The notes under the pieces: generated by a model | Told to the model about the DNA's origin: nothing | Database searches by the model: none | What the model saw: the letters and a program-made list of their open reading frames with translations, nothing else | Program-made: the position numbers and the translations under genes | Assembly (NCBI GenBank): GCA_041694815.1 | Contig: JBGFSC010000033.1 | Span: 90,609 to 154,608 of the forward strand | Source of the DNA: Elusimicrobiota bacterium | GTDB lineage: Bacteria > Elusimicrobiota > Elusimicrobia > UBA1565 > JACRDR01 | Reading direction: 5' to 3' | DNA length: 64,000 bases | Shown: piece after piece, positions 1 to 63,814 of the stretch | How positions within the stretch are numbered: position 1 is the first letter of the stretch | How the letters are laid out: each line of letters opens with the position of its first letter

Positions 1-2
1 AC

Positions 3-3000: not shown

Positions 3001-6000
3001 ATCCCAGCTACAATCTGACCCCGCTCAACGTGGCCGATCCGGGACGCACCTTCGTCGCCGGGGTCAATACCGAGGCGATGAATTTCTTCCTGACCGTGCG
3101 CATTTCGTCCGCCGGTTACGGGGCGACGGAGCTGCCGAGCTCCTTGGGCATGAGCATCCCCTCGCCTTCCTACGTCACGCTGACGGGCGACAGCCTCACG
3201 GGAGTGGCGGAAAACAACTTCTCCATATTGACCGCGACGTCGGTGGTGCAGCGCGCCCCGGCGCAGATCTATGTCAAGGGCACCGATATCAACGCCTGGT
3301 GGTCGCCTCCCTCCTTGAGCCTGTCGAGCTATAATTACGTCGACCAGGGCGCTTCGTTCGTGGGCGTGCTCAAGCTTCAGATGTGGACACCGAGCTTCAC
3401 GGGCACGCTGGGCCGGGTCCACGTCATCCACACCGGTACGGGCTTGGACATCGATATCAAACGCCTGCATCTGTTCGTCGACTGCGATACCAACGGGAAT
3501 ATCGCCAACGGCGACGGCAAGTTCCAGGCCTCCATCGACAAGGAGATCACCGACCCGGCCATCCTCGTGAAGTTCACCACCAACACCCCACGCGCCGCCG
3601 ACCTCGTGCTCAAGGTCGACCCGAACGACAGCAACAATTACTCGTTCCGCACCATCACCCAGTCGACGATCACGTATTTCGTGGTCTATGACTATGAACC
3701 CGCGGCCGTGGCGTACCTGGACCATGGAACGCAGGTCGGAACCGCCGACATCGTCCCGCTGGGTGGGGATGGCGACGTCGTGCCCTTCTCGACCATCCTG
3801 ACGACCAACGTATACGTGCGCCCGACGGCCGACCTAGCCGCCGTCGAGAAGGTCAACAACCCCGGCACCGGCAACGCCGCGGCGGTGCCCGCCTCCATCA
3901 CCCAGGCCGATGCCAATCAACCGGTCATGAAGCTGACCCTGCGGACATTGAGCGGCGCGGCGAGCTGGTCGGGCCTGAAACTGGACCGTTGGGTGCCCTC
4001 GAGCTTGAGCGGCAGCGTCATCTTGAACAAGGCGGCCGACGTCAAGAATATCCAGATATGGGCGGATGTCAACGGGAACGGACTCCTGGATCCCACCACC
4101 GACCAAATCGTAAGTCCCTTGAGCGGCATCGTGCATAATTTCCCGCAAAGCACCCTGGGCGTGGCCATCAGTTCGACGCAGGCCGGGCCGCTCGACGTCG
4201 TCGTCACTAATCTCTCGGCCTTCTTCCCGGCCGACGACGTGTTCCCGTCCGTTCCCCAGCGCCTGGTGTTCGCCGACGACCAGACCGACCAGGCGAATAA
4301 GGAGGTCTTCGTCTGCACTGGCATCTCCTTCTCCTCGGGAGCCTTCACCAACTGCATGCCCGGCCAGGACCAGACCACGCGCAAAAACCACGCCGTCGGC
4401 ACCGTGATTTCGGGCCCCGCGCGCGTACCCGTGCAAGGCACCGGAGGCGGACAGACGCTCACCGTCTTAAACAAGGACTTCTTCGTGGCTTATGACTTGG
4501 ATCCGTTGGCCACGGTCAACCCTTCGGCCAACCTTGGCGCTATCATCCCGACCACCCATTACTTCCTTATCCAATCCCCGAAGCGGATGCACGACAAGGA
4601 TTCTAATGGCACCGTATCGGTCGGCATCCCGCCGAACGGCAAGACGATGTCCTTGGTGTCCAACGTAGCCGAATACGCGGACAAGATCGTCGTCGTCGCC
4701 TCCAATACGGTCGACGACGTGAATCTGGGCCCCTTCCTGCAGCAGAAATCGACCGGGGCGGTGCTCAATTTCTCGCTTTACACCGACGTCGCCGACGCCT
4801 TATGGCGCTGGGTGATCGTGACGGCCACGGGCACCTCGGCTGCGGCCGGCAATGTCTCCAACGACGTGCAGCTGGTCTCCTTATGGCGTGACGCCAACAA
4901 TAACGGCAGCTTGGACGTTAACGACGTGCTGGTGGGCACGGGGACTTTCGGCAACACCGGCCAGCCGCTCACCTCTCGTGTGCAGCTGAGCACGCCGTTT
5001 AGGCTGATGACGCAGGCCAAGGCGCCGACCCCGCAGCGCTTCTTCGTCGCTTATTATCTAAGCGCCAACGCGCAGTCCAATGACCCCATCACCCAGGCGC
5101 CTCGTACCTTAGGGGCGGTGCTCACGGCGGGCTCCTTCCCGCAGAACAATCCCACCGTCGACGATTATTTCGCCAACGCCTTCACCCTGCCCAATATCTA
5201 CAATCCCGCTTCCCCGCTTCCCTTCGAGGGCAAGTCGCGGGCCATCATCCCGGCGTCGCAGACGATGTACGTCAAGACGACGCCGATGTTCTCAAGCTCC
5301 AGCGGCACCTTCGTGGCCCCCACGGTGTCCTTCGCCGTGCCGGCCTCCACGCCCGCAGCGGTGGACGCCGCTTGGGTGATCACCTCATCGGCCGGCCTGC
5401 CCTCCGGCGGTCCCACCACCTACATGGTTGTCGACGGGGAGGTGATCAGCTATGAGGACCTGGGGCCGACATCGCTCATTCGGGTGCACCGCGGCCTCCT
5501 GGGGACTTCCGCTTCCGCCCACGGCGTCGGGGCGGTATTGGGCCCGCTGCTCGAGCAGGGTAGTCCGGCGAACGCCGTCATGAAGGTGGAGGCCTGGAGC
5601 AGCGGCTTCCAGGTGCAGTGGAACGCCTTGCGCCTACTCATCAATGCCCCCGGAGGGCTTTCGCATGTCGACGCCGACGTGGCCAAGGTCAAATTGTGGA
5701 AATCGGTGCAGCCCTCCTCGGCCCCTATCTTCCATCGCGACCAGAATATACAGGGATCCGGGGACATACTCTTGGCGCAGGGCAACTTGGTGCAAGGAGT
5801 CGTCGACTTGAGCATCGTCGACCCCACCCTCAATTTCGCGCCCTATACCTTGGTGGGCACCTCCACGCAGACCTTCTACGTCTCGCTCGACATCGACCCG
5901 GCGGCGCGCTACTGCTTCGTCTCGCTCAATCCACCCAACGAGGTCGTGGGCCTGCAATCCCTGAATGGATCCGACTGGGGGCTGAGCCCGCCCGGCGCCG

Positions 6001-9000
6001 ACCACCAGATCGTGCTGCTCAATACTCCGGTGACGACGGTGCAGCCCATCGTGCCGACGCTCAACACGATGAACGCCTCGATCCTGTCGATCGCGCCGCT
6101 CTTCGCGCTTCAGAGTTCCTCCAACGTGCCCATCGCCCAGATCACGGCGACGGCCGACCGCAACACCGTGGTCTGGCAGAAGCTCAGGCTCGACCGCATC
6201 GGCACGGGCGGAGGCCTGGACTCCGATATCTCGTTGATCAAGGTCTGGAGGGACGCCAACGGCAACAGCATACTCGACTCGACGGACACGGCGCGTAATC
6301 CCGACGGTAGCTACCCCAATCTCATAACCTTCGGCAACGAGACCTTCTCGAGCGCCACGGTGACCTTGACCTTCAAGAACCCGCCCGTCGTTTCGACGGC
6401 GCCGTCGAAGTACTTCGTGACCTACGACTTCTCCCAGTTCGCCATCATCGACTCCGGCGAGGGCCTGCGCATAGCCAATACGACGTACGCGACGGTGCAG
6501 ACGCCGCACCTGGTAACCTTCTCGACGGCGAATTTCCAATCGACGCTGGTCACGGTCCAAAAGGTTCCCTCCAACGTCACCTTGGGCGTCAACGACCTTA
6601 TCCTCAACAACAACGTGACCAAGCTCTCGCAGGCCCAGGCCGATGTTCCCTTCCTGAGGCTAAACCTCGCCACGGACATCTCGCTGGCCCAATGGCAGGC
6701 CTTGCGCATCGCCCGTTCGGGAGGCAGCCAGGATTCGAGCAAGCCTTTCGGGCGCAACACCAACGTCGGCTTCATCCGCATCTGGAAGGATATCAACCAG
6801 AACGACACGCTTGAAACGGACACCGATGTCAACGTCTCCGAGGCGAACACGGTGCTGCAGGTCGCCGTCTCCTCGGTCCAGGCGACTCCCTTCCTCATGG
6901 TTCTAGCCTCCACGGCCGGTTTCCCGGCCTCGGGCAACGGAAAAATTTACGTCAACAACGCGGAATTGATGACCTTCTCCGGCTACACGACGGTATTCGT
7001 CTCCGGCTCGAGCCGCCCGGCGGTCAATGTCTTGACCCGCGGAGACAATTTGGGCACGACCTCGACGCCGCGCCTCAATCACGCGGTGGGATCTAGCGCG
7101 CGCAAGGTCGACCTGTTCGATCAGACCAACGACGCCAATCTTCAGACGGTGCTGGAGCTGGCGGTGCCGCAGACCATACTCCCGACGCCGCCTGTATTCT
7201 TCCTCACCTACGACATCGGGGCGACGGCCGTCAAGAACGACTCGGTGGGCGTAGACATCGCCGACCGCAATTGGGTGATCGTCAGTAACCCGAACGTCAC
7301 CTCGGCCCGCGTCAACGTCAATATCAATAAGATCCTTACCCAAGGCACCACCAACCATGCCTATCCGTACACGGGCACCACGGTGTTCATCTCGCCGCTC
7401 AATCTGTCGATCGTCGGCCGCAACATCGCGCCGACCGCCGCGACGGTCAACCAGAACAATGTGCCCTTGGAGCAGTTCACGATCAAGACCTCCTCGGATT
7501 ACGTGCGCATCGGCCAATTGCGGCTCAAGCAATTGGGCACGGTGCAGTCGCCTCCGACGCCCGGCGCCGGAAGGGGCGACGCCAAGCGGGTGACGGTCTG
7601 GCTCGACAACGGCGACGGGGCCTTCACCCCGAACACGGACACCCTGATCGGCGCCCTAACCCACAACGGGTTGCCGGGCGGATCGCCTGCCTTCGACAAC
7701 GGGGTGGCCTTCACCAGCCTGACGGTCAATGGGCTTCCGTACTTGACGGTCTCGACGGCTCCGGTCAACCTTTTCGTCGCCGTCGACATCTCGAGCGTGG
7801 ATTTGGCGGGCAATATCACCATCGGCCATAACATCGGCTTCGCCCTGCCCAGCTTCAACGATATCTTCGGGCCCAACGCGACGACGCTCAACGCGGCGCC
7901 CGACCCGAGCAATCAAAACCCGCTCAACGCGGCCTCCTCGCTGGTCCAGATCTCGCCGGCCATCATTCCGCTGTCGAATATCCTGCCCAAGATCGCGATG
8001 GCCTCCAACGGATACCCGGCCTACGTGCTGCAGGATTCCTCGGGCAATGTGATCCTGGATTCCAACGGCATGCCCATCGCCGATGCGAGCAAATGGATAT
8101 ACCTGCAGGGTTCTACGGAGCCGCTCGTCGATATCAACGGAGACGGCCAGCCCGACAACTTCGCCTACCCGCCGGACACGACCCCCCTGCCGCCAGGCGT
8201 CAAGCCCGGACCCCTGAAATTCATCAGCTTCGACGGCACGCGCAACCCCGCCTTCGACCTGGACGGCGACAAGCTCCTCGACATCGACATCAATCGCGAC
8301 GGCATACCCGACGCGGTCGTCAACGACGGCGCCGGCAAGCCCATCTACTTCCTGCGCGACATATTGGGCAATACTTACCCCGTTTCGGACCAGGCCCTGG
8401 CGGTGACGGCCTGGAGCAACAATACGACGAAGCTGGAAGCCGCCTGGTCAATCCCCACCTCTACCGTCACCGGTTTCCAGCTGGCGGCCGGGGTCAATTA
8501 CTCGAGCCCCACATCTTTCTCCAACGGCTGGCGCACGATCGGCTCGAGTACCACCGGCATGATCGACGGGCTCGGCCTGCCCGTGCCAAAGGTCACGCGC
8601 CTGACGGCCAATATCTCGCAGACCGATACGATCATCTCGGTCGAGGCGGCGGGCAACCTCGTCTCGGTAGGCAAGATCGTCGTGGGCTCGGAGATCATCG
8701 GCGTCACAAGGATCAGCGCGACCCAGTTCCAGGTCACCGCCTTGGAGGGCTGCCCGAACAACAGCGGGCGCGGCTGCGACGGCTCCTTGCCGCAACCCCA
8801 TCTCAAGAACGAGCTCGTCAGTGACCAGGCCGTGTTTGTCTCCGTGCGTGGTTTCAACGGGCCGGCCTCGGCCCCGAGTGGCTACGTGCCCGGTCCCACG
8901 GGAAGGCCGCTGCTGGTCTACCGCATCGACACCACGCCCCCCAATGCTCCGGCCAACGCCGCGCCGAACGTGGCGCCCGGAACCCCGGCCGGCGGCTCCT

Positions 9001-9617
9001 TTGAAATCAGCTGGGACGCCTCGGTCGACGCTGAGTCGAGCGTGATGGCCTACCAGATCCAGGAGCGCGTCGGCACCGATCCCGTCTGGCGCAGCATCGC
9101 GATGATCCCGGCCGTCAAATCCAACGGCGCGATCAACCGTTCCTATAACGTCGGCAACCCCGCGATCAACGCGGCCGAGAAACCGAGGGCCTCCGGCCAA
9201 TTCTATTCCTACCGGGTGCGGGCCTTCAACTACGCCGGTATCCCGTCGGAATACTCGAGCGAATCGAGGCCCGTGGCGACCTCGCTCATCTCCTCGCCGA
9301 TCTCGAATGTGTCGAACTTCCCGAACCCCTTCGACAGCCGCAAGGGCGGCCCGGAGGGTAAGACCGTCATTACCTACACCTTGGGGGCCGACTCGGACGT
9401 CACGATCACGATCTACGACATGCTCGGCTACACCGTCAAGACCTTCACCTTTTCCCCCGGACAGCAGGGTGGACGTGCCGGCCCCAACTTCGTTACTTGG
9501 GATGGCCGCAACGGGGAGGGCCGGCTGGTCGCCAAGGGCGGCTACGTAGCCCGTATCAAGGCCGGCTCCTCGGCCGGCACCGGCACCGTCATCCGAAAGA
9601 TCGGCGTTATCCATTAA
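3..9617 (+). CDS. Giant secreted/surface protein (5'-truncated, >3,200 aa): Ig-like/beta-rich repeats, Ca-binding-type DxDxDG motifs, FN3 domain, C-terminal T9SS type-A / FlgD-Ig-like sorting domain
   Basis: Frame is open from base 3 (TNNLIHTAVASF...) so the start lies upstream of the window. S/T/G/V/P-rich. Repeated (W/Y)xDxNxNGxLD-type motifs, DINGDGQPD and DLDGDKLLDIDINRDGIPD, FN3-like YSYRVRAFN. C-terminus NFPNPF...ITYTL...VTITIYDMLG..VK...WDGRN..G..VAKGGY..RI. Confidence 0.9.
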   Translation, partial: TNNLIHTAVASFSDPIPAITVNAGPASAITVDPPANQVVNVRAGSFSSPGFKTFTAQISDSFGNAVQAATTAYLQLVSVVGTPGTIRYSSNTWINMGVSTTVVSDNKGRIGKNTDSDNTNMPLALFVSPTVPDSTRIWIGTMTFPGGDLTPYINTRINISGTFATIGGDPRTLVFVSSPTSPVLVDEVPASGADFIIERRDDFGNATDSGQTDVTLNLPAAQVQAHTAAGFTAGVSFTIQGDYGFMDTGNNYIPSLSFLEGIKQVSFRYRDKMSSYAGPSVSSNTGFGGRPGAWTLEIVPTSIGVSSISFNLQMEPKDPFQLGFGNPKRTLQAGKPRDAGNKLHSFQAQIHDRFRNPRVPVTPINVFVSTVTRTPSKFADSFSFSLSSTLAAGSPPAFAASTDTLSFPLDRYETTFYYLDTMASSSYPPGQTAPVIGLWDKATVLFSTSQAVNITPEVIQAIRVRPSTSTALLAGTTSEMMVFELQDQFGNPSALQSGQEDLGPSPCPFPCVEFQLTSDSNGKKQFSSPNVGAFKNSTGTAYMAIGQAATTFYLIDDMVSPTTWTLTVETVRSHGWTKGISTYTVKPGPPVLALFTTPQRYLIAGTTVQLSTATQQPIPTPITLRLVDAFGNVTSSSWAAHTANFYSNFTGSTRGGIDPTQTVVDGANWPLIAASSLPVTIPANSNSATVYVWDTVVSTLPLMASVIRQDGYALPLSSQSVFITPAKADYITIYHPFPVTAPLKVNTPGILTRNVGGKNLGVVMRDRYGNIASGHPINKQHFSGAVVFSTNRSTKTVSLVDTTNSTTTPRMYVFNGESDATPGIYNGLQIQDSMVSELQVFATAYANAAIWGRTNDASRSFNNSPPPPSSAFSDGNVFTAGLVVTPTDMAPEQDPATGLVVAHKQSFQSRAVLRQGDGTTSNSPDPVQMLRLSFNILPSTPTLNAKLSAIRVLKTGFLATDKVPEVALYYDENHDGLFQSGSDVRIATAAFDGSGWRFGDPSYNLTPLNVADPGRTFVAGVNTEAMNFFLTVRISSAGYGATELPSSLGMSIPSPSYVTLTGDSLTGVAENNFSILTATSVVQRAPAQIYVKGTDINAWWSPPSLSLSSYNYVDQGASFVGVLKLQMWTPSFTGTLGRVHVIHTGTGLDIDIKRLHLFVDCDTNGNIANGDGKFQASIDKEITDPAILVKFTTNTPRAADLVLKVDPNDSNNYSFRTITQSTITYFVVYDYEPAAVAYLDHGTQVGTADIVPLGGDGDVVPFSTILTTNVYVRPTADLAAVEKVNNPGTGNAAAVPASITQADANQPVMKLTLRTLSGAASWSGLKLDRWVPSSLSGSVILNKAADVKNIQIWADVNGNGLLDPTTDQIVSPLSGIVHNFPQSTLGVAISSTQAGPLDVVVTNLSAFFPADDVFPSVPQRLVFADDQTDQANKEVFVCTGISFSSGAFTNCMPGQDQTTRKNHAVGTVISGPARVPVQGTGGGQTLTVLNKDFFVAYDLDPLATVNPSANLGAIIPTTHYFLIQSPKRMHDKDSNGTVSVGIPPNGKTMSLVSNVAEYADKIVVVASNTVDDVNLGPFLQQKSTGAVLNFSLYTDVADALWRWVIVTATGTSAAAGNVSNDVQLVSLWRDANNNGSLDVNDVLVGTGTFGNTGQPLTSRVQLSTPFRLMTQAKAPTPQRFFVAYYLSANAQSNDPITQAPRTLGAVLTAGSFPQNNPTVDDYFANAFTLPNIYNPASPLPFEGKSRAIIPASQTMYVKTTPMFSSSSGTFVAPTVSFAVPASTPAAVDAAWVITSSAGLPSGGPTTYMVVDGEVISYEDLGPTSLIRVHRGLLGTSASAHGVGAVLGPLLEQGSPANAVMKVEAWSSGFQVQWNALRLLINAPGGLSHVDADVAKVKLWKSVQPSSAPIFHRDQNIQGSGDILLAQGNLVQGVVDLSIVDPTLNFAPYTLVGTSTQTFYVSLDIDPAARYCFVSLNPPNEVVGLQSLNGSDWGLSPPGADHQIVLLNTPVTTVQPIVPTLNTMNASILSIAPLFALQSSSNVPIAQITATADRNTVVWQKLRLDRIGTGGGLDSDISLIKVWRDANGNSILDSTDTARNPDGSYPNLITFGNETFSSATVTLTFKNPPVVSTAPSKYFVTYDFSQFAIIDSGEGLRIANTTYATVQTPHLVTFSTANFQSTLVTVQKVPSNVTLGVNDLILNNNVTKLSQAQADVPFLRLNLATDISLAQWQALRIARSGGSQDSSKPFGRNTNVGFIRIWKDINQNDTLETDTDVNVSEANTVLQVAVSSVQATPFLMVLASTAGFPASGNGKIYVNNAELMTFSGYTTVFVSGSSRPAVNVLTRGDNLGTTSTPRLNHAVGSSARKVDLFDQTNDANLQTVLELAVPQTILPTPPVFFLTYDIGATAVKNDSVGVDIADRNWVIVSNPNVTSARVNVNINKILTQGTTNHAYPYTGTTVFISPLNLSIVGRNIAPTAATVNQNNVPLEQFTIKTSSDYVRIGQLRLKQLGTVQSPPTPGAGRGDAKRVTVWLDNGDGAFTPNTDTLIGALTHNGLPGGSPAFDNGVAFTSLTVNGLPYLTVSTAPVNLFVAVDISSVDLAGNITIGHNIGFALPSFNDIFGPNATTLNAAPDPSNQNPLNAASSLVQISPAIIPLSNILPKIAMASNGYPAYVLQDSSGNVILDSNGMPIADASKWIYLQGSTEPLVDINGDGQPDNFAYPPDTTPLPPGVKPGPLKFISFDGTRNPAFDLDGDKLLDIDINRDGIPDAVVNDGAGKPIYFLRDILGNTYPVSDQALAVTAWSNNTTKLEAAWSIPTSTVTGFQLAAGVNYSSPTSFSNGWRTIGSSTTGMIDGLGLPVPKVTRLTANISQTDTIISVEAAGNLVSVGKIVVGSEIIGVTRISATQFQVTALEGCPNNSGRGCDGSLPQPHLKNELVSDQAVFVSVRGFNGPASAPSGYVPGPTGRPLLVYRIDTTPPNAPANAAPNVAPGTPAGGSFEISWDASVDAESSVMAYQIQERVGTDPVWRSIAMIPAVKSNGAINRSYNVGNPAINAAEKPRASGQFYSYRVRAFNYAGIPSEYSSESRPVATSLISSPISNVSNFPNPFDSRKGGPEGKTVITYTLGADSDVTITIYDMLGYTVKTFTFSPGQQGGRAGPNFVTWDGRNGEGRLVAKGGYVARIKAGSSAGTGTVIRKIGVIH

Positions 9618-9620
9618 TTC

Positions 9621-9702
9621 AGGTGCCAGGCATCCACTTTCTACACTTTGTTGAAATTCTCGAGAAAGTAGAGAAAGTGTAGAAAGTGAATGTCTGGCAC
9701 CT
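9621..9702. repeat. Palindromic REP/MITE-like element, copy 1
   Basis: 29-bp arms AGGTGCCAGGCATCCACTTTCTACACTTT / AAAGTGTAGAAAGTGAATGTCTGGCACCT (2 mismatches). Same family as 38987-39070. Confidence 0.85.
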
Positions 9703-9725
9703 AAATATTCTTCCTTAATAGGGTA

Positions 9726-9765
9726 TTGACAAAGCCCTTGACAAAGCAAGTGGACCTGTTATACT
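9726..9765 (+). promoter_or_regulatory. Sigma70-type promoter with duplicated -35 box
   Basis: TTGACAAAGC twice (9726-9735, 9738-9747), then an extended -10 TGT-TATACT (9757-9765). The spacer is 16 nt from the second TTGACA. Confidence 0.7.
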
Positions 9766-9844: not shown

Positions 9845-9925
9845 GGGCGATAATAGCAAACCCGCCGCAAGACGGGGGCGCAAAGCCGTGGTCCCGGTTT
9901 CCGGGATGCCAGGCTGCCGAATGCG
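9845..9925 (+). promoter_or_regulatory. c-di-GMP-I (GEMM-I) family riboswitch, A20 variant
   Basis: CGATAATAGCAAA-CCCGCC-GCAA-GACGGG-GGCGCAAA-GCC...TCCCGG-TTT-CCGGGA...GGCTGCCGAA matches the GEMM-I layout: GCAAA, P2 with GNRA loop, GCAAA junction, P3, 3' GCCG. It lies directly 5' of the 9926 ATG. Confidence 0.85.
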
Positions 9926-11536
9926 ATGGCCCGAAGAGAACGATTAGGGGCTTGTCCCCTGCTTCAGAACTGCCTCAAGAGCGCGGCCTTGGCCGGCTTT
10001 TGGGGCGTCGTCGTTTTAGGGGCCATCCCGGCGTTCGCCGGGGAAGGAGGCGGGCAGGCGGGCACCTTCCTTTCCTATGGGGTCGGCGCCCGCGCCCTGG
10101 CGATGGGCGGTGCCTTCTACGCCATCTCAGACGACGCTACCGCGGGGTACTGGAACCCGGCCGGCTTGGCCCAGGTTCAACGCAAGGAGCTCACTACGAT
10201 GCAGGCCACGCTCTTCGCCCAGACCAAGCTCACCTATATGGGCTTCGCCTATCCCCGCGCCGCCGGCGGCACCTGGGCCTTCAGCCTGACGCAGTTGGTC
10301 TCCTCCGGTTTCGAGAAGGTCAGCGCCACCTTCGACCCCGCCACCAGCGAGCCCACCGGGGTGCAGACCGCGGGCAGCTTCTCCGACCAACAGACGGCCT
10401 ACGGCCTGTCCTGGGGAAAGCAGGTCACCGACACCATGTCCTTCGGAACGACGCTCAAGCAGGTCAAGCGCCAGCTCGACAATTCCGTCGACAGCCATAT
10501 GGCCATGGACATCGGCATGATGCGGCAGATGTCGAGTCTCCACAGGCTCGGCATCGGCGTGCAGAACGTCTTTAGCCGCAGCTCCGGGGACACCGACGAT
10601 AAACTGCCCGTCACGGCGAAGCTAGGCAACAGCCTGACCCTCTTTAAGGGTCGCCTTCTCTTCGGCCTCGACCTCGCCAAGCCACAGACCAGCGGCTTGG
10701 GCTGGCGCTTCGGCGGCGAGTTCTGGGCCACCCGCTGGTTTCCGCTCCGCTTCGGCCTGATGGGTTCGCCGGGCATCCAGGAGACCGATTTCGGCTTCGG
10801 CCTCGCCTTCCGCTACTTCAACCTCGACATCGCCAACGGCATCCACGATCTCGGCGCCAGCACCCGCATCTCGCTGACGGCCAAGTTCGGCAAGTCCAAG
10901 AACGAGGTTTCGGGAGAGAAGATCAGCGCGCTCATCCAGGCGGGCTTCGAGGCCTTCAAGGAGGGCAATTTCCGCCTCGCCACGGTGCGCTTCACGCAGG
11001 CGGCCGACGCCGACCCGGAGAACCGCGACGTGCGCGCGATGCTCACCCGCCTGCAGACGGCGGTGACCTACGTGCCCGAGGCCCAGGGCGGCGAGGAGAT
11101 ACAGACCTACATCCGCAAGGGCGTGATCGCCTACGTCGACGGCCGCGACCTGCGGGGCGCGGTCAATTCCCTGCGCTACGCCTTCAACAAGAACCCGCGC
11201 GACGAGAAGCTGCTCTCCTTGCTCAACTTAGTCGAGCGCGAGACGGGGGCCTCGGAGATGACCCGCAAGCCGGAGGGGCCCGAGCAGTTCACCTTCGTCG
11301 ATCAGAAGATCTTCGACGCGCGCCAGGCCGTCTACGACGGCAAGTACGACCTGGCCATCCGCCGCACGCAGGACGTGCTCGACCTGGAGCCCAACAACGT
11401 CACGGCGCTCGAGATCATGGGCAGCGCCTTCTTCCTGATGGAGGAGCGGGCCAAGGCGAAGGCGGTCTGGAAGAAGGTGCTCCAGATCGACCCGAAGAAC
11501 CGGGTGGTGCGCGAATTCCTCCAGCAGATTCAGTAA
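9926..11536 (+). CDS. PorV/PorQ-like (UPF0164/FadL-type) outer-membrane barrel protein fused to C-terminal TPR domains
   Basis: Signal peptide ending AFA. Family motif FLSYGVGARALAMGGAF..ISDDATAGYWNPAGL, amphipathic strands ending RISLTAKFG, then TPR-like helices. The start codon is uncertain. Confidence 0.8.
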   Translation: MARRERLGACPLLQNCLKSAALAGFWGVVVLGAIPAFAGEGGGQAGTFLSYGVGARALAMGGAFYAISDDATAGYWNPAGLAQVQRKELTTMQATLFAQTKLTYMGFAYPRAAGGTWAFSLTQLVSSGFEKVSATFDPATSEPTGVQTAGSFSDQQTAYGLSWGKQVTDTMSFGTTLKQVKRQLDNSVDSHMAMDIGMMRQMSSLHRLGIGVQNVFSRSSGDTDDKLPVTAKLGNSLTLFKGRLLFGLDLAKPQTSGLGWRFGGEFWATRWFPLRFGLMGSPGIQETDFGFGLAFRYFNLDIANGIHDLGASTRISLTAKFGKSKNEVSGEKISALIQAGFEAFKEGNFRLATVRFTQAADADPENRDVRAMLTRLQTAVTYVPEAQGGEEIQTYIRKGVIAYVDGRDLRGAVNSLRYAFNKNPRDEKLLSLLNLVERETGASEMTRKPEGPEQFTFVDQKIFDARQAVYDGKYDLAIRRTQDVLDLEPNNVTALEIMGSAFFLMEERAKAKAVWKKVLQIDPKNRVVREFLQQIQ

Positions 11537-11537
11537 A

Positions 11538-11606: not shown

Positions 11607-11635
11607 TTGAAAATTTAATATGGGGCCCCTACACT
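11607..11635 (+). promoter_or_regulatory. Putative sigma70 promoter for the motor genes
   Basis: TTGAAA-17 nt-TACACT, 8 nt before ATG 11644. Confidence 0.45.
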
Positions 11636-11643
11636 TATCGAGT

Positions 11644-13572
11644 ATGCTCCGCTTAAGGATCGTGGCGGCCTTATTGGCCGTTCACGCGGCGATGCCCGTC
11701 GGCGCCCGGGCGGTCGTCGACGCTCCCGACCTGTCGCTGCTCGAGAGAGAGACCGCCCTCAAGCGCGAGATCGAGAACAAGATCCAAAGCGATATTCTCG
11801 ACCCGATACTGGGCAAGGACCGGGCGAAGGTATTCATGGACATCCAGTTGGAGGTCATGGCCCAGCAGCGCGAGAATCAGCGCACCGGCGCCGGCATGGC
11901 GGAACGCTACAAAGAGAAGCTCGGTCCCAATCCGGGCGCCAGCTTTCCCATGCAATTCATCCTGCCCGGGGTGCCCAAGCCGAAGAACGTCAACAACGCC
12001 CCGACCCCCAAGCCGGAGGCCTCGCAGGGCCAGGTCGCCTCGCAGGAGAAGGCCGACAAGGAGGAGATATTCTCCCTGCAGACCACGGTCAAGCGCCTGC
12101 TCGTGACCGTGATCCACGACGATAGCCTGCCGCAGCCCAAACTCGAGATGGTGCGCCAGCGCATCATTGATGCCCTCACGCAGTTTAAGCTCGGCAAGGA
12201 CCAGATCGTTTTCCGACCCACGAATTTCAAGACGGCCGTATGGCTCGACGATTTGAAGAACCCGAGCGTCTACATCCCGCTGCTCTACGCGCTCCTCCTG
12301 CTGCTGCTGCTGCTGTTCCTCTTCGGACCGCTGGCGGGTTTCATGCGCCGCTATGTCGAGGCCATCCGGGAGAAACCCGCCGCGGAGGTGAACGTCGAAT
12401 CCCAGATCGAACAGCCGGAGGAGGAGGGGCGGGGCCTCGGGGGCCCCGAAAAGAGCGAGCTCGACATCATGCTCGGGCGCAAGCCGACCGAGCCGCCGCC
12501 GCCGTCGGAGGAGGACGAGGCCATGAAGAAATTTGAGCCGTTCGCCTACATCAACGAGGAGAACCTCAAGCGCCTGGCCAATCTGTTCATGCTGCGCCGC
12601 GAGGAGCCCTGGCTGATCGCCGTCGTCTTAAGCTACTTGAAGCCCGAGTTCGCGCGGCAGGTGCTAACGCAGTTGCCCGTGGAGCTGCAGGCCAAGGTCG
12701 CCCTGGAGGCCCTGAAGGTGCGGCAGGTGACCCGCGAGCAGGTGGTCGCCATCGACGCAGATGTCAAGGAGTCGATCGACTTCGTCGTCGGCGGTATGGA
12801 GCGCCTTACCCAGATGCTCGAGGAGTCCGACACGCAGACCCGCAAGAACATCCTGGAGTACCTAAAGAACGAGAAGCCCATGGTCTACGAGCGGGTGCGC
12901 AAGTTCATCCTCACCTTCGAGGACGTGGTGGGTTTCCCGGACCGCGAGATGCAGGCCATCGTCCGCGAGCTCAAGACCGACGCGATGGCGCGCGCCCTGC
13001 AGGGAGCCTCGCCGGAGGTGGTCAACAAATTCCTTTCCAACATGTCGGGGGGCGCGGCCTCCCTGCTCAAGGAGTCCATGGAGTACAGCAAGGGCTTGAC
13101 CGAGGCCCAGGTGGAGGAGGAGCGGAGCAAGATTATCGATACGATCAAGACGATGGAGAAGGAAGGCAAGATCGCCATACGCGAGGGGCGTGGCCAGCTC
13201 GAGGGCTTCCAGGAGGAGCTAGCTATCGAGCGCGTCGAGCGCCTCGGCGCGCGGGCGCAGGCGAAGGCGGCGCTGCCCGCTCCCGCCCCGGCCGCCGCTT
13301 CAGACCCTGCCGCCGCGCAGCAATTCCTACAGGCAGGAGCGCAGGCGCACGACGCAGGCCGTTTTGAGGAGGCCATGGCCCAGCTGCGCCAAGCCCTGGA
13401 TTTGGACCCGAATCTCTGGCAAGCTTATCAGTACCTTGGCAACGCCCTGCTGCAAACAGGTCGTGCGACGGAGGCGCTGGGCTGCTACGAGAAGCTGCTT
13501 GAGATCAATCCTGATCCCCAACTGCGGTCGTGGGTCGAGAGCTTCAAGGCCCAGTTGAAAACGGCATCATGA
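11644..13572 (+). CDS. FliF C-terminal (RBM3-like)-TM-FliG(M/C)-TPR fusion protein
   Basis: Signal peptide, then FliF_C-like LKREIENKIQ..LDPILGKDRAKVFMDIQLE...VKRLLVTV.HD...KDQIVF...F. One TM helix (VYIPLLYALLLLLLLLFLFG). FliG-like EEPWLIAVVLSYL, VGG, LTFEDV....DREMQ.IVREL, KFLSNMS..AA.LLKE. C-terminal TPR. Start moved from TTG/ATG 11620 of the track to ATG 11644. Confidence 0.8.
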   Translation: MLRLRIVAALLAVHAAMPVGARAVVDAPDLSLLERETALKREIENKIQSDILDPILGKDRAKVFMDIQLEVMAQQRENQRTGAGMAERYKEKLGPNPGASFPMQFILPGVPKPKNVNNAPTPKPEASQGQVASQEKADKEEIFSLQTTVKRLLVTVIHDDSLPQPKLEMVRQRIIDALTQFKLGKDQIVFRPTNFKTAVWLDDLKNPSVYIPLLYALLLLLLLLFLFGPLAGFMRRYVEAIREKPAAEVNVESQIEQPEEEGRGLGGPEKSELDIMLGRKPTEPPPPSEEDEAMKKFEPFAYINEENLKRLANLFMLRREEPWLIAVVLSYLKPEFARQVLTQLPVELQAKVALEALKVRQVTREQVVAIDADVKESIDFVVGGMERLTQMLEESDTQTRKNILEYLKNEKPMVYERVRKFILTFEDVVGFPDREMQAIVRELKTDAMARALQGASPEVVNKFLSNMSGGAASLLKESMEYSKGLTEAQVEEERSKIIDTIKTMEKEGKIAIREGRGQLEGFQEELAIERVERLGARAQAKAALPAPAPAAASDPAAAQQFLQAGAQAHDAGRFEEAMAQLRQALDLDPNLWQAYQYLGNALLQTGRATEALGCYEKLLEINPDPQLRSWVESFKAQLKTAS

Positions 13573-13584: not shown

Positions 13585-14958
13585 GTGTCCGAAGAAAAGA
13601 AAGACGATAAGAAGCCCTTTTCCTTGCCTCCTCTTCCCGGAGGCCTGAGGCTGCCGCCCATGCCGGGGATGGGGGCCGGCTCCCTGCGTCCCGGCCTGCC
13701 ACTGGGCCCGGGGCCCGCGGCGGCGGTGGCGCCCTCCGCCGTTCCGGAGCCGCCGAAGCCGCCGGAACCACCGGGGGCCGAGCTGGAACGCAAGCTGGCC
13801 GAGACCGAAAAGCGCCTGCAGGAGGAGAGGGAGAAGGTGCTCTTAGCCAATCTCAAGGCGCAGGAAGAGAAGGTCTACGCGGCGAAGGTAGAGACGGCGA
13901 TCAAGGAGGTGCAGGAGAAGCTGCGCCGTGACCGCCGGGACGCCGACGCCGAGGAGGCCAGGATACGCTTGGAGGCCCGCATCCAGGAGCTCGAACAGAA
14001 ACTCATCGCCGAGCGCGAGACATGGGTCACTACGCTCAAGGGGCAGATGCAGAGCCGCCAGGCGCAGGATCGCGAGATCGAGACGCAGTTCACCTCGCGG
14101 ATGCAGGAGATGGAGCGGCGCTGGCTGGAGGAGAAGGCGCATTGGCAGAAATCCCTCATGGGCAAGGAGGAGGAGAACCGCGCCCTCAGGAACATCGTCG
14201 AGAAGCTCAAGGGGGCGGACCTCGAGCTGCAAAAGGTGTCGCAGGAGAAGAAGCTCCTGGAGGTCCGGATCGCCGAACTGGGTCAGGAGGCCGCCGCCGC
14301 CCAATCGCAGGCGCGCGCCATGGCCGAGCATGAGAAGGAGTATTTCGCACTCAAGGCGGAGCTGACGTTGGCCCGCGAGCAGGCGCGGCTCAAGCAGGAG
14401 GCCCTCGAGGGGGAGCTCAAGAGGCTCAAGGACGAGAACGAGCCCCTGCGCCGCGACGCCCAGGGCGCCTACGCACGAGCCCGGGCCGAGGCCGACCTCG
14501 AGATCCATACCCACCGCGAGCGCTTCGAGCGGCAGGCCCAGGCGGCGCGGGAGGAGGCCGCCTCGGAAATCCAAAGGCTCAAGGGGCAATTGGAGGCCGC
14601 CAGCGCCTCGCTGCAGCGCATGCGGGCCGTCGGCGCGGCGTTGGAGAGGCAGGCCGCCGCCCTGCGGGTGCAGGCCGAGGAGGCGGGCAAGGCCAAAAAG
14701 GAGCTCGAGCAGATGAACGAGCGCTACAAGGCGGAGTTTCTCGTCCTGCAGCGCCGCTGGCTCGAGCGCGAAAAGGAGATACGCCAGGAGTCGCAGCGGG
14801 CCGTCGAGCAGATGCGGCGGGAGGCCGAGGCGGCCGTCGCCCAGGCGAGGAAGGATTTGGAGGAGGAGCGCCGCAGGACGGCGCTGCTTGAGGGCGAGAT
14901 CCGCCACCGCCAGGTCGCGGGGCTGCTCAAGCCCGAGCCTCCGGCGGCGCCGGCATGA
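13585..14958 (+). CDS. Cytoplasmic long coiled-coil protein with Pro-rich N-terminus
   Basis: AGGAG before GTG. About 60 aa P/G-rich, then about 380 aa E/K/R/Q/A/L heptad-like sequence. No TM or signal peptide. ATGA overlap with flbD. Confidence 0.8.
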   Translation: MSEEKKDDKKPFSLPPLPGGLRLPPMPGMGAGSLRPGLPLGPGPAAAVAPSAVPEPPKPPEPPGAELERKLAETEKRLQEEREKVLLANLKAQEEKVYAAKVETAIKEVQEKLRRDRRDADAEEARIRLEARIQELEQKLIAERETWVTTLKGQMQSRQAQDREIETQFTSRMQEMERRWLEEKAHWQKSLMGKEEENRALRNIVEKLKGADLELQKVSQEKKLLEVRIAELGQEAAAAQSQARAMAEHEKEYFALKAELTLAREQARLKQEALEGELKRLKDENEPLRRDAQGAYARARAEADLEIHTHRERFERQAQAAREEAASEIQRLKGQLEAASASLQRMRAVGAALERQAAALRVQAEEAGKAKKELEQMNERYKAEFLVLQRRWLEREKEIRQESQRAVEQMRREAEAAVAQARKDLEEERRRTALLEGEIRHRQVAGLLKPEPPAAPA

Positions 14959-15179
14959 TCCGCTTGACGCGACTCAACGGCTCGCCGATCACGGTGAACG
15001 CCGAGCTCATCGAGTCGATCGAGGGGGAGGCGGACACCGTCCTGTCCTTGGCGACGGGCAACCGCTACGTCGTCAAGGAGTCCGTCGAGGAGGTCGTCTC
15101 CAAGGTGGTCGAATACCGCAAGAAGGTCAACGCGGAGCGTCCCGTGACGAATCCCATTCAGGGGTTCGAGCGGAAGTAG
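14955..15179 (+). CDS. flbD: FlbD/SwrD family protein
   Basis: MIRLTRLNG.....NAELIESIE...DTVLSLATG..YVVKES.EEV; typical position upstream of motA. Confidence 0.9.
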   Translation: MIRLTRLNGSPITVNAELIESIEGEADTVLSLATGNRYVVKESVEEVVSKVVEYRKKVNAERPVTNPIQGFERK

Positions 15180-15192: not shown

Positions 15193-16008
15193 ATGGATAT
15201 CGCAACAGTGATGGGCATCATCGTCTTCTTCGGACTGACCGTATCGTCGATATGGATCGCCGAAGGCGCGGCGGGATTTAAGCCTTTCGCCAACCTGGAG
15301 GCCTTGCTCATGGTGATGGGGGGCACTTTCTGCGCCACCCTGGTCAATTACCCGCTCAACCAGGTGGTCGGCCTGGGTGGGATCCTGCGCAAGGTGATGC
15401 GCTCCTCCGGCGAGGACACCTCCAAGATCGTCGGCACCTTCGTCGCCTTGTCACAGAAGGCCAAGCGGGAAGGCTTCCTCGCGCTGCAAGGCGACGTGCG
15501 CGGGCTCGACAACGATTTCCTGAGGCGGGGGGTGCAGCTCGTCATCGACGGGGCCGACCAGGAATTCATCCGGAACATGCTCGAGACCGAGATTGGCTTC
15601 CTCCGCGAACGGCATAAGGTCGGCCAGGAGATATTCAACGCCATGGGCACCTACGCCCCCGCCTTCGGCATCATCGGTACCGTGCTGGGCATGATACTCA
15701 TGCTCTCCTCGATCGATGACGTCGCTCAGGTCCCGCGCCGTATGGCCCTGGCCCTGGCGGCCGCCTTCTACGGGCTCGGCTCCGGTTACATGATATTCCT
15801 GCCCATGGGCGGCAAGCTTCGGCGGCGTTCCGAGGAGGAGATGCTCGTCAAGGAGATCGTCATCCGCGGGGTGCTGCTCCTGCAAAGCGGCGCGACCCCG
15901 AGCGTGGTGGAGGCCAATCTCAAGGCTTACTTGGAACCGGCCAAGCGCGTATTGATCAAGACGGCCGAGGAAGCGACGCCCGCCGCCCCGGCGCCCGGAG
16001 CAAGATAA
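15193..16008 (+). CDS. motA: MotA-family stator subunit
   Basis: MDIATVMG, GGT..ATLV.YP, AKREGFLAL, FLRRGVQLVIDG, APAFGIIGTVLGMI. Confidence 0.92.
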   Translation: MDIATVMGIIVFFGLTVSSIWIAEGAAGFKPFANLEALLMVMGGTFCATLVNYPLNQVVGLGGILRKVMRSSGEDTSKIVGTFVALSQKAKREGFLALQGDVRGLDNDFLRRGVQLVIDGADQEFIRNMLETEIGFLRERHKVGQEIFNAMGTYAPAFGIIGTVLGMILMLSSIDDVAQVPRRMALALAAAFYGLGSGYMIFLPMGGKLRRRSEEEMLVKEIVIRGVLLLQSGATPSVVEANLKAYLEPAKRVLIKTAEEATPAAPAPGAR

Positions 16009-16751
16009 TGCCCCTACGGGCGCCCAAGGGCTTCATCGACGAGACGGACCCCAAGGTCTGCCAGATTGGGCACCCCGCGCCCCCCTGGCTCGTCAACTAC
16101 GCCGATCTCATGACCGAACTGGTCTGCTTCTTCGTCATTCTCTACGCCTTGTCGGCGGCACTCAACAAGAACGTGCAGCAGGCCGCCAAGCAGGTCAAGG
16201 AGATGATCGAGAACAAGGAAGTCTCGGGTGAGGTGAAGGTCGACCGCGAAGGGCTCAAGATATCGCTGGAGGAGCAGGGAGAGAACGTCTTTTTCGAGAG
16301 CGGTTCGGCGGAGCTTACCCCGCGTATGCGCGTGCTCATGAACAAGCTCGCCCCGGTGCTGACTAAGCTCGTGCAGCAGCACGAGATCATCATCGAGGGG
16401 CATACCGACAATATCCCGATCAAGAACGACCTCTACCTCTCCAATTGGGAGCTCTCCTCCGAGCGCGCCACCAATGTCGTCGAATACCTGATCATGGCGC
16501 ACGGCTTCCCGCCATCCAAGATGGGGGCCATGGGGTACGGTGAGAACCGTCCGGTCGTTGCCAACGACACGCCGGCCAATCGCGCGCGCAACCGCCGGGT
16601 GGTTTTCTTCGTCAAGAACGCACCGATCGCGCCGCCGGCGGCCGCCAAGGCGCCCGCGGCCGTGCCCGCGCAGGCACAGGCTCCGCTTCCCGCCTCTAAG
16701 GGGGCGCTCGAGACGCTTCGAGGCGTCTTGTCCCGATTTACTCCAAAATGA
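16008..16751 (+). CDS. motB: MotB-family stator subunit with OmpA-like peptidoglycan-binding domain
   Basis: TM WLVNYADLMTELVCFFVILY containing the conserved Asp; IEGHTDN, NWELSSERA, RARNRRV. Confidence 0.92.
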   Translation: MPLRAPKGFIDETDPKVCQIGHPAPPWLVNYADLMTELVCFFVILYALSAALNKNVQQAAKQVKEMIENKEVSGEVKVDREGLKISLEEQGENVFFESGSAELTPRMRVLMNKLAPVLTKLVQQHEIIIEGHTDNIPIKNDLYLSNWELSSERATNVVEYLIMAHGFPPSKMGAMGYGENRPVVANDTPANRARNRRVVFFVKNAPIAPPAAAKAPAAVPAQAQAPLPASKGALETLRGVLSRFTPK

Positions 16752-16764: not shown

Positions 16765-17463
16765 ATGCCCCGCCTCGTTCTATTCCTTTCCTTAATAATG
16801 ACCTTGAGCGCCTGCTCAGGCCTGCAATTGGGCAAGGGCAGGAAGAAGGTTGTCTTGTTCGATTACGCGGAAGGGCGCGTCGTCGACGTCGCGATTACGG
16901 ACCGGCGCACGGGGGCCACGGAATTGCTGTTCGTATCGATGCCGAAGCGCTCCCTGTTCTTGGAAGGCTATATTCAGGGAATCGTCACCGATTACAACGA
17001 CAACCCGATCCAGGGGGTGATCGTGCGTGCCTTGGCCGAGGGCGAGCAGAAAATGATCGAAAGCGGAAAGGCGGCCTTCCAGAGCTCATCCTTCGACGCG
17101 GGCGTCAGCGACACCAACGGCATCTACCGCATCCGCTTTTCTTTGCCCGTGATCAATCGCAAGATCGACGTGCGCGGGAAATTCCTGTACAATCCGGGCT
17201 GGGAGCAGGAGAAGGTCAATCTCGGCAAGGCGTACGAGCCCCAGACCAAGGAATCCCCCTTCCGGCTCATCTTCGATGAGGCGCAGGGAATGCTCGTATT
17301 CGCCGAGGGGATCCGCAAGGCCATCGTGATGCCCGTGCTCAGCAACGCCCCTCCCAAGACGCAGCTGCCCGGCGTCAAGCCCGTCGAGGCCCCGAAGGAA
17401 GAGAAGAAGCCGGAAAAGCCTGCGGAAGACGACCTGTTCAAGAGCTTCGGCTTCGGCCCCTAG
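16765..17463 (+). CDS. Putative lipoprotein with carboxypeptidase-regulatory-like (transthyretin-fold) domain
   Basis: MPRLVLFLSLIMTLSA-C lipobox; IQGIVTDYNDNPIQGVIV...SDTNGIYRI motif; 13 nt after motB. Confidence 0.7.
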   Translation: MPRLVLFLSLIMTLSACSGLQLGKGRKKVVLFDYAEGRVVDVAITDRRTGATELLFVSMPKRSLFLEGYIQGIVTDYNDNPIQGVIVRALAEGEQKMIESGKAAFQSSSFDAGVSDTNGIYRIRFSLPVINRKIDVRGKFLYNPGWEQEKVNLGKAYEPQTKESPFRLIFDEAQGMLVFAEGIRKAIVMPVLSNAPPKTQLPGVKPVEAPKEEKKPEKPAEDDLFKSFGFGP

Positions 17464-50100: not shown

Positions 50101-50195
50101 CGGAGGGCGACGGGCTGCGCATCCAGCTGCGCGGCGAGGAGCCGATCGGGTGGGTAGAGTCCTTCGTTACTTCTCTGAATCCCAAGTCAGTTTGA
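47121..50195 (+). CDS. mfd: Transcription-repair coupling factor
   Basis: PGEFALRG.VVDIFP, GDYVVH.DYGI, FPYEETPDQ, GDVGFGKTEVA, DEEHRFG, SATPIPRTL, QLRGRIGR, DLEIRGAG, TRCF domain. Confidence 0.95.
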   Translation: MPEVAIGGVPGSGAWAALALSLLHRRERFPGLPQAAPPLTLVRGSDEEIEDLADALAALLPLFPEAPIAPRIAVFGDDAQVRLGSLEILRRGAEIVLATPDGLRHKAPLPGSFDALRLELRRGRSYPRAELLERLTTLGHQRVDFVESPGEFALRGSVVDIFPLEPVRAVRLNFNEERLESLRLFDPETQAGGEFIEEASLTPAQEAGFEAAVADWLSGRGLWACEAGVELPPVKVGLLRVGSGGPGAFDFGIRPGMRFEGNVELALEQVRRWREQGLRVLFFSLNRGEDERVQELLEGRADCQFLIGPLRSGFVWPTEKLAVLSSSELFERSYRGAPRWGRYGDGSRRRLRWKELKSGDYVVHRDYGISRYLGIEPVESGEAVIDCLRLEFRGSDKLYVPMTDFKLVQKYVGSEGRRPRLSSLDTRSWEAVKARVREGVRELAEELLKVQAARAAWPGHAFGPDSHMEREFAASFPYEETPDQRRAIEEVKADMMRPHPMDRVVIGDVGFGKTEVAMRAALKCASGLKQAAVLVPTTILADQHFRTFSKRFAEYPVRLGMLSRFETPSRQKKTLDLLASGALDIVIGTQRLLSPDVKFKDLGLIVVDEEHRFGVRDKERLKGLKKNVDVLSLSATPIPRTLHQSLSGLRSVSIIRSAPAGRQPIMTRVGPWDEKLVAAAIEAELSRGGQVYYVHNRVRTLDARADALRKLVAGIRVCVAHGQMRSETLEKTMWDFFNRKHDLLAASTIIESGLDIPTVNTLIVEDAQDFGLAQLYQLRGRIGRERQKAFCYLLHPPGSELAHLSEESRKRLEALREFGELGSGLQLAMRDLEIRGAGDLLGAKQHGFVDAVGVEFYSELLGEEIEKLKGGAPKPAVAPVHLDVELPAFIPEEYLPGEMERLEFYKRLIDAGPEQWAALRRELEDLSGPAPRPVVNLFRLFELRAKASAAGLRALSQRDNQVEVYFRPDAQVAAKTLLAWQRDFGGRLEFRRSPEGDGLRIQLRGEEPIGWVESFVTSLNPKSV

Positions 50196-63806: not shown

Positions 63807-63814
63807 CTTCCTTA

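Follow-up and report, generated by a model that had tools for sequence, protein, structure and literature searches.

What might a single protein chain built from parts of the flagellar rotor proteins FliF and FliG do in a bacterium whose genome yields no match to FlhA, FliM or flagellin? This question is raised by an open reading frame (ORF) at 11620..13572 (+) in a 64,000-nt stretch of an Elusimicrobiota genome (assembly GCA_041694815.1, contig JBGFSC010000033.1, positions 90,609 to 154,608 of the forward strand), hereafter the window. In the reading that we favor, with a probability of roughly 0.6, the fused protein is the rotor subunit of an ion-driven, non-flagellar rotor-stator machine descended from the core of the flagellar motor. 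That such a machine is coupled to giant surface proteins is a more tentative proposal.

A single chain with FliF and FliG parts

The ORF encodes 650 aa, or 642 aa when read from its second ATG at 11644, where the public gene call places the start; residue numbers here follow the 650-aa form. From the N- to the C-terminus, the fused protein comprises a signal-peptide-like segment, a periplasmic domain of the type of the third ring-building motif (RBM3) of FliF, one transmembrane (TM) helix, an acidic and Pro-rich linker, the middle and C-terminal domains of FliG, and tetratricopeptide repeats (TPRs):

11644..11712 (+): signal-peptide-like N-terminal segment, hydrophobic, residues 9–31, ending in ARA followed by VV; alternative start at 11620
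11713..12264 (+): predicted periplasmic domain of FliF RBM3 (S-ring) type, residues 32–215 (184 residues), from fold and profile matches
12268..12345 (+): single TM helix, residues 217–242, with a conserved FLFGPLA motif and RR on the cytoplasmic side
12346..12534 (+): acidic, Pro-rich cytoplasmic linker, residues 243–305
12535..13197 (+): FliG middle and C-terminal domains, from Pfam, NCBIfam and alignment to 3ajc, with the torque-helix region NMSGGAASLLKESMEY
13315..13539 (+): C-terminal TPR tail, from several Pfam TPR models, residues 577–636, cytoplasmic by topology

This is the layout that an earlier note on this DNA had read from the letters, and hydropathy, Pfam and fold comparisons place each element where it had been proposed. 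The hydropathy scan yields two hydrophobic stretches, residues 9–31 and a much stronger one at residues 217–242. The former resembles a cleavable signal peptide, a putative assignment made from the sequence; segments with the same AxA-type end are also seen in both full-length paralogs from this genome and in the family consensus. There is one clear TM helix, versus the two that flank the periplasmic region of FliF. In canonical flagellar motors, the place of the acidic, Pro-rich linker is occupied by the FliF tail bound to FliG_N.

The ORF is a real gene and not an assembly artefact, a concern that the earlier note had raised and that can be dismissed because full-length relatives are abundant and the N-terminal domain (N-domain) is found in 151/401 Elusimicrobiota genomes. 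A word-indexed search returns 445 relatives, the best 120 of which are full-length (608–686 aa) and, leaving aside the protein itself, 54–70% identical to it; the named organisms among these best 120 are all Elusimicrobia.

On its own, the fused protein scores 13.7 bits against the Pfam family YscJ_FliF_C (E = 0.085), below the cut-off of 23.8, and the RBM3 assignment was therefore tested by fold and by profile. An AlphaFold2 model of residues 32–215, built with 39 relatives and having a mean predicted local distance difference test score (pLDDT) of 73.5, contains in order a helix, a strand, a low-confidence insert of ~70 residues, a strand, a helix and a strand. When compared to 48,161 solved chains in a structural search independent of Foldseek, this model matches the Vibrio FliF S-ring best (8z5v_A; Z of 11.8, root-mean-square deviation of 2.5, 98 aligned residues, 28% identity) and the Salmonella FliF S-ring second best (6scn_A; Z of 11.5), followed by weaker matches to domain 2 of PrgK (Z of 9.5) and SpoIIIAG (Z of 8.9). 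With Foldseek, rows 1–13 are all FliF entries, two of them with E < 0.001. A profile of 35 N-domain sequences (the window, 12 close loci, 20 distant loci and 2 paralogs from the same genome) retrieves FliF from solved chains at E-values of 6.8e-6, 1.8e-5, 2e-5 and 1.3e-4, with SpoIIIAG at 8.9e-4. The profile alignment places the insert on the collar region of FliF, with LPG opposite the IPG of Vibrio FliF, and at this beta-collar position we observe a conserved LPGxPxP motif.

Across 1.84 billion representative sequences, the N-domain profile recovers 2,992 proteins at E up to 0.001, and 20 of the best 150 were scanned with Pfam. FliG domains follow the N-domain in 12 of these 20, with 5 of the 12 passing the YscJ_FliF_C cut-off; another 5 are ordinary FliFs (YscJ_FliF plus YscJ_FliF_C), retrieved at E of 7e-19 to 1.4e-16, and 3 show other architectures. 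We also observe a representative (P0213) that joins MacB_PCD to YscJ_FliF_C. As judged from the profiles and the predicted structure, the N-domain is a homologue of FliF RBM3, and the fold claimed in the earlier note is thus borne out by the top ranking of FliF S-rings. RBM1 and RBM2, which in FliF surround the export gate, were said there not to be evident, and their model PF01514 (YscJ_FliF) indeed has no match in the fused protein or anywhere in this genome.

On the cytoplasmic side, Pfam places FliG_M (PF14841) at residues 324–385 (42.9 bits; cut-off 25) and FliG_C (PF01706) at residues 414–520 (91.9 bits; cut-off 23.3), both above their cut-offs and both as first read, and the FliG middle and C-terminal structure from Thermotoga maritima (3ajc) aligns to residues 306–526 (E = 6.4e-34). 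A weak FliG_N match (27.1 bits) at residues 333–416 overlaps FliG_M/C and does not represent a separate N domain, since the linker between the TM helix and FliG_M is only 63 residues long; the reported lack of FliG_N thus also holds. The EHPQ(R) motif of FliG_M is the binding site for FliM. In the 3ajc alignment, EHPQ of T. maritima FliG lies opposite EEPW, exactly the replacement that had been noted, and across the family this site is variable (EEPW, EEPQ, ESPE, ETPE, EKPE and others).

Both FliG_C and its torque helix are strongly conserved across the family. The torque helix NMSGGAASLLKESMEY aligns to T. maritima NMSKRAAALLKDELEY, with Gly at the Arg position, the first acidic residue kept as Glu, and the second replaced by Ser, or by Glu in distant relatives. 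That first acidic residue, a Glu aligned with the Asp of T. maritima 'LLKDE', is shared by the fused protein and 30/30 TPR-tailed relatives, and the neighboring MotA keeps Lys or Arg in its 'A[KR][KRT][ED]G' stretch. By its sequence, the fused protein is a member of neither the FliF nor the FliG family: it has no RBM1/2, a covalent linker in place of the FliG-binding tail, and a genome with no match to FlhA on the one hand, and no N domain, no EHPQ and a sub-threshold equivalog score on the other.

The operon and its upstream region

The fused gene is the second in an operon at 9926–17463, in which it is preceded by a PorV-like barrel gene and followed by genes for a coiled-coil protein, FlbD, MotA, MotB and a lipoprotein:

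9926..11536 (+): PorV/PorQ-family outer-membrane barrel with C-terminal TPR; barrel at residues 45–321; NF033709, 98.4 bits (cut-off 90)
13585..14958 (+): coiled-coil protein, 457 aa, without signal peptide; no Pfam match
14955..15179 (+): FlbD-family small protein; PF06289, 89.6 bits; 4-nt overlap with the coiled-coil gene
15193..16008 (+): flagellar-type MotA; residues 2–254 align to the solved MotA 6ysf (E = 6.6e-53)
16008..16751 (+): MotB; MotB_plug, 46.9 bits; OmpA-like peptidoglycan-binding domain, 76.8 bits; channel Asp in YADLMT
16765..17463 (+): lipoprotein, last operon gene; lipobox LSAC; beta-sandwich; found only in close relatives

From the coiled-coil gene through the lipoprotein gene, the gaps are only −4 to +15 nt. 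FlbD, which we take to be the stator accessory called SwrD, is encoded by a single-copy gene in this genome. The Pro-rich N-terminus of the coiled-coil protein carries a PPLPGG-like motif that is kept across the phylum. No ATPase, export gate or translocon is found in the operon in Pfam and NCBIfam scans. An attempt to read the function of the lipoprotein from its fold was set aside, as the model (pLDDT of 68.7) matches only generic transthyretin, CnaB and carboxypeptidase-regulatory beta-sandwiches within the noise range (best Z of 6.8).

Gene order is identical in the 14 close loci wherever the contig extends, with the coiled-coil gene present in 14/14, the genes for the TPR-extended PorV barrel (PorV-TPR), FlbD and MotA in 12/14 each, MotB in 11/14 and the lipoprotein in 10/14. 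Identity among these loci is 75–86% for MotA and 53–64% for the fused protein, and the channel Asp of MotB is kept in 11/11 close loci with MotB. In 20 distant loci, which belong to other families of the phylum, the order is kept in the main: the PorV-TPR gene lies directly upstream of the fused gene in 16/20, and MotA/MotB are found within the stretch in 8/20. One candidate locus (L020), from an Acidobacteriota metagenome-assembled genome, was rejected as a spurious TPR match; the other 14 loci are all from Elusimicrobia. As a side observation, very large extra genes (1,640–2,111 aa) separate the fused and coiled-coil genes in four loci (L022, L024, L026 and L036), those of the first three ending in TPRs; the window has no such gene.

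Upstream of the operon, we resolve four features:

1..9617 (+): 3' part of a giant surface-protein gene, whose open frame starts upstream of the window
9617..9706 (no strand): inverted repeat with 45-nt arms, 82% complementary, no spacer; right after the stop of the giant gene and before the operon promoter
9738..9765 (+): sigma-70-like promoter match, hexamers TTGACA and TATACT 16 nt apart, the second preceded by TG (11/12; consensus match only)
9846..9922 (+): predicted aptamer of a cyclic di-GMP (c-di-GMP)-I class riboswitch, GGC variant; RF03167, 60.7 bits (gathering score 59); 3 nt before the first operon ATG

The operon is thus preceded by a predicted c-di-GMP-I riboswitch, and aptamers of the same clan (CL00126; RF03167 or RF01051) occupy the equivalent place in 7/7 close and 6/7 distant loci (13/14). 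Tandem c-di-GMP-I aptamers are seen in two of the distant loci (L022:12930-13347 and L036:6642-7082), upstream of PorV-TPR genes or genes for small proteins with the C-terminal domain (CTD) described below. The inverted repeat is possibly a terminator or insulator hairpin.

The giant gene has an open frame of 13,791 codons (~41 kb; G000:C38:58850-100222), which ranks among the largest bacterial ORFs, and its product ends in a domain like FlgD_ig or the CTD of type IX secretion system (T9SS) cargo (~9357..9566; PF13860, 30 bits, cut-off 27; window-frame residues 3119–3188). Among the distant loci, an ORF, giant or small, with this CTD is found together with PorV-TPR directly upstream of the fused gene in 14/20. 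Elsewhere in this genome, a FlgD_ig match lies less than ~500 nt upstream and on the same strand at 10/21 PorV-family places (for example, C40:8722-9887, C19:35934-37069, C44:90512-91680, C53:6650-7874 and C54:86690-87813), and so a pairing of cargo then barrel is a general habit of this genome. Only TPR-extended PorV barrels sit with the fused genes. A search for SprA_N gives 19.2 bits against a cut-off of 27, which proves little because the control search found this family in 0/14 reference genomes.

Paralogs, distribution and flagellar genes

Four FliG_C-bearing genes of this kind are present in the genome: the one studied here, a 530-aa form on contig C41, a 514-aa form on C15, and one on C7 that is cut by the contig end. 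There are also four MotA-sized stator genes (on C38, C15, C7 and C29), and four shorter MotA_ExbB-family genes (open frames of 185–229 aa) sit elsewhere. At C15:13180-17887, the genes after the paralog encode MotA, two successive MotBs and a 358-aa protein that resembles the TPR portion of PorV-TPR; a double MotB is also seen in L032, L037 and L039.

Despite a completeness of 97.8%, the genome has no match to FHIPEP (FlhA), YscJ_FliF, Flagellin_N, FliM, FliMN_C or Flg_bb_rod, six families for each of which control searches are positive in four flagellated reference genomes. Across the phylum, FlhA is found in 9/401 genomes, 5 of which also carry the fused protein, and the remaining 146 of the 151 N-domain carriers have no FlhA match. 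Carriers include 122/293 high-quality genomes and 80/123 genera, and the N-domain frames are mostly 600–700 aa long; two small-genome families are nearly without the N-domain (1/118 and 0/89).

The relationship of the fused forms to canonical FliG was examined in a tree of 47 FliG middle and C-terminal regions, from which L007 (truncated by its contig), L018 (split and containing Ns), L055 (identical in place to L034) and two fragments from L053 shorter than 150 residues were dropped. A branch with support of 94/81, recovered in 96% of bootstrap trees, has all six canonical FliGs on one side, including four from flagellated Elusimicrobiota. Where a genome contains both kinds, its canonical FliG groups with the canonical FliGs, apart from the fused forms of the same genome. 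The deeper backbone is without resolution, and hence a single origin of all fused forms is not shown by this tree.

Several observations concern more distant relatives. A search with the short-form relative P0196 returns only 4 proteins, for which cluster look-ups name one organism, an Endomicrobiales bacterium. Leads from a protein atlas include FliG_C-bearing proteins of 478–717 aa, most commonly from Cloacimonadota, Bdellovibrionota and Bacteroidota, and a cluster of 362-aa proteins with FliG_M and YscJ_FliF_C in Thermodesulfobacteriota; membrane-anchored FliG fusions may thus reach beyond Elusimicrobiota. In L038 (G314:C44, 834-aa frame), P0176, P0189 and P0214, HisKA and HATPase_c are fused ahead of the RBM3-TM-FliG unit, and these relatives would be rotor proteins with a built-in sensor kinase.

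Elsewhere in the window, two ORFs at 20787..22733 (+; 648 aa) and 22750..24555 (−; 601 aa) match nothing in Pfam or NCBIfam at E up to 0.001. The GC content drops from ~0.65 to 0.55–0.57 at 50001..58000 and 62001..64000, over a run of minus-strand ORFs at 50167..63806 that may be a laterally acquired cluster.

A proposed rotor-stator machine and its alternatives

If the fused protein is a rotor subunit, its RBM3 domains would, by analogy with FliF, assemble into a periplasmic ring, and such a ring would set one FliG unit per subunit (1:1) in a cytoplasmic ring. The ring would be turned by MotA5B2 units anchored in the peptidoglycan, whose push on the FliG_C torque helix would be powered by ion flow. 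Lacking FliM/FliN and an EHPQ motif, this rotor would operate without CheY-type switching, and with neither RBM1/2 nor FlhA, it would hold no export gate. Expression of the operon would be set by c-di-GMP. Output would pass via the periplasmic ring to the co-encoded PorV-TPR barrel and on to giant surface proteins with CTD-like ends, which the machine may deploy, hold or move. On the cytoplasmic side, the coiled-coil protein is a candidate ligand of the TPR tail, which may bind its Pro-rich end. Output is the weakest step of this scheme, for which the repeated neighborhood of PorV and giant CTD proteins points to the handling or moving of surface adhesins.

Taken to its full extent, the proposal is of a previously undescribed, envelope-spanning rotary machine of Elusimicrobiota, in which a one-protein FliF-FliG rotor is turned by MotAB, switched on and off through c-di-GMP, and passes its rotation, by way of a ring in the periplasm, to PorV-like barrels and to giant adhesins anchored by a CTD. 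It would be a flagellar-derived counterpart of the Bacteroidota gliding/type IX motor, serving surface motility or the deployment of adhesins with lengths in the tens of thousands of residues, and present in several specialized copies per cell. We regard this complete picture as possible though doubtful in its entirety; the machine as a whole has a real chance of being a new type of envelope motor. The earlier note had arrived at a non-switching rotor with no export gate: its anatomy stands, and its reasoning fits a genome without matches to FlhA, YscJ_FliF, FliM, FliMN_C, rod or flagellin and a protein in which EHPQ is not kept, whereas ring and rotation remain matters of inference; the operon, the riboswitch, the giant gene and the three paralogs had been missed.

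Several observations weigh against a rotor. Both the ring and its rotation are inferred from homology, no periplasmic part that would receive the output was identified, and the absence of flagellar genes is judged from draft assemblies. The score against the FliG equivalog TIGR00207 is 116.5 bits, versus a cut-off of 226.7, and covers profile positions 111–333 only, and the operon MotA is likewise below the NCBIfam stator cut-offs (216.5 vs. 394; 207.9 vs. 340), with the MotA, MotP and PomA models all missed. The insert at the collar position is modeled at pLDDT < 50 and is only ~25 residues long in the C15 paralog, and a FliF-like beta-collar is for these reasons not established. The giant gene is adjacent in only 4/15 close loci (the window, L006, L016 and L019), with sucCD-like genes found upstream in the others.

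The rotor-stator interface itself also departs from the classical one. For this comparison, we take E. coli R281, D288 and D289 to map onto the T. maritima alignment. In E. coli, the contacts are made by the pairs R90/D288-D289 and E98/R281, according to two studies (PMC12505986, PMC7564593). In the fused family, Gly or Asn takes the place of the Arg of the E98/R281 pair (Arg in only 1/35 related rows), and in 12/12 close loci the Glu of MotA is replaced by Gln; the interface has therefore lost one of its two classical charge pairs. We considered whether the loss of Glu in MotA and of Arg in FliG co-vary and rejected this idea, as L021, L032, L033 and L034 keep the MotA Glu and still have Gly in FliG.

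The loss of a charge pair also speaks for an unlikely alternative, namely that the fused protein is a static adaptor: a membrane-anchored dock that, much like TonB or TolA, passes proton-motive energy from MotAB-type units to the outer membrane, with RBM3 as a fixed scaffold or with no ring at all. It is further favored by the lack of any identified shaft-like partner in the periplasm, by the variable, low-confidence collar insert, and by the outer-membrane barrel with periplasmic TPR in the operon, which resembles energized outer-membrane systems. However, the stator belongs to the flagellar MotA type, with its torque-generating cytoplasmic domain (E = 6.6e-53), and not to the ExbB/TolQ type; shorter MotA_ExbB-family genes are found elsewhere in the genome; FliG_C and the torque helix are strongly conserved, and the RBM3 fold is known from ring-forming proteins.

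Less probable still is a ring-shaped conduit or assembly platform, in which an RBM3 ring would act as a SpoIIIAG- or SctJ-like channel or scaffold for the export or anchoring of the giant CTD proteins, with MotAB providing energy or gating in place of continuous rotation. Consistent with this, the fold also matches PrgK D2 (Z of 9.5) and SpoIIIAG (Z of 8.9; profile E of 8.9e-4), the genomic link to CTD proteins and PorV-like barrels is a repeated one, and SprA_N stays below its cut-off in a search made uninformative by its control. However, neither an ATPase nor an export gate or translocon is encoded in the operon, the giant gene forms a transcription unit of its own that is often not adjacent, and FliG_C, MotA, MotB and FlbD are kept together, as torque generation requires. 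A decaying flagellar remnant, or part of a true flagellum whose other genes were missed in drafts, is close to refuted: although all parts descend from flagellar proteins and 5 of the 9 FlhA-bearing genomes have the fused protein, the frames are intact in 80 genera and highly conserved, the genome holds four paralogs and a dedicated riboswitch, six flagellar families have no match in it at 97.8% completeness, and canonical FliG groups apart from the fused forms.

When compared to the flagellar core, the proposed rotor-stator machine shares the RBM3/S-ring domain, a TM helix, the FliG middle and C-terminal domains with the torque helix, MotA, MotB (with its plug, Asp and OmpA domain) and the flbD-motA-motB order. 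The differences are that parts of FliF and FliG form one chain without RBM1, RBM2, FliG_N and the FliF tail; that EHPQ is not kept, the E98/R281 pair has lost its Arg and a TPR tail is added; that genes of the export gate, C-ring, rod, hook or filament have no match in the genome; and that the protein is accompanied by a PorV-like barrel and a coiled-coil protein, with a c-di-GMP riboswitch upstream. SpoIIIAG and SctJ/PrgK have the same alpha-beta-beta-alpha-beta fold, with an insert between the first two strands also in SpoIIIAG, but they match less well than FliF (Z of 8.9 and 9.5 vs. 11.8) and have no FliG fusion, and the context here is neither sporulation nor an injectisome.

Covalent joining of the two proteins has precedents. 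Engineered full-length FliF-FliG fusions in Salmonella and Vibrio are reported to assemble rings (PMC10941966, PMC11481574, PMC6079021; PDB 8z4d/8z4g) and share the covalent 1:1 connection, but they are laboratory-made and sit inside a flagellum, whereas the fused protein here is natural, is reduced to RBM3, the TM helix, and FliG middle and C-terminal domains, and is found in genomes without matches to flagellar structural genes. The one published natural FliF-FliG fusion that we found in this material is from Chlamydiaceae, which are non-flagellated (Bergeron 2016, PMC4768692). As far as the sections drawn on here describe it, the chlamydial protein (~330 aa) has RBM2 and one further RBM, no SpoIIIAG-like RBM3 and only the middle domain of FliG, and it is discussed as an injectisome partner with no mention of a torque domain (PMC4768692). 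On this account, the fused protein here is its reverse, with RBM3 only and with FliG_C and MotAB. A weak match to PRK05934 ('type III secretion system protein', NCBIfam) at residues 322–360 (E = 3.4e-4) may be related, if our guess is right that this model represents the chlamydial fusion.

On the side of the proposed output, type IX secretion and Bacteroidota gliding (PMC8986121) have in common with this locus a PorV-family barrel beside proteins with CTD-like ends, a co-encoded ion-driven motor of the 5:2 family and giant surface proteins. Of type IX features, we find the PorV barrel (NF033709, 98.4 bits) and the cargo C-terminal domain (FlgD_ig, 30 bits). Type IX gliding uses GldLM, in contrast to the MotAB with FliG domains and the PorV with TPR extension seen here, and the likeness does not go beyond the PorV-family barrel, the CTD-like ends of the cargo and a motor driven by ions. 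We found no description of a FliF-FliG/MotAB system in Elusimicrobia in the literature, supplements and subscription journals being outside the search. With supplements again outside the search, the string 'Elusimicrob' is absent from a study of MotAB evolution (PMC12505986), and MotA, FliG, motil*, pili and secretion are absent from the main text of a groundwater Elusimicrobia genome paper (bioRxiv 10.1101/765248).

If the rotor-stator reading is true, the torque core of the flagellum can persist under selection without an export apparatus, switch, rod, hook or filament, which would bear on the evolutionary assembly of the flagellum and on the question of which of its parts make up a self-sufficient module. 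The ion-driven rotary machines known from bacterial envelopes are the flagellum, GldLM/T9SS, ExbBD, TolQR, Agl-Glt and Zorya, and the machine proposed here would be a new entry among them. A natural, switchless rotor with a 1:1 single chain would also be a simple object for structural and single-molecule studies of how MotA turns FliG. For the organisms themselves, the combination of a riboswitch, a PorV-like barrel and a link to giant proteins suggests how uncultured groundwater bacteria may attach to or move on surfaces.

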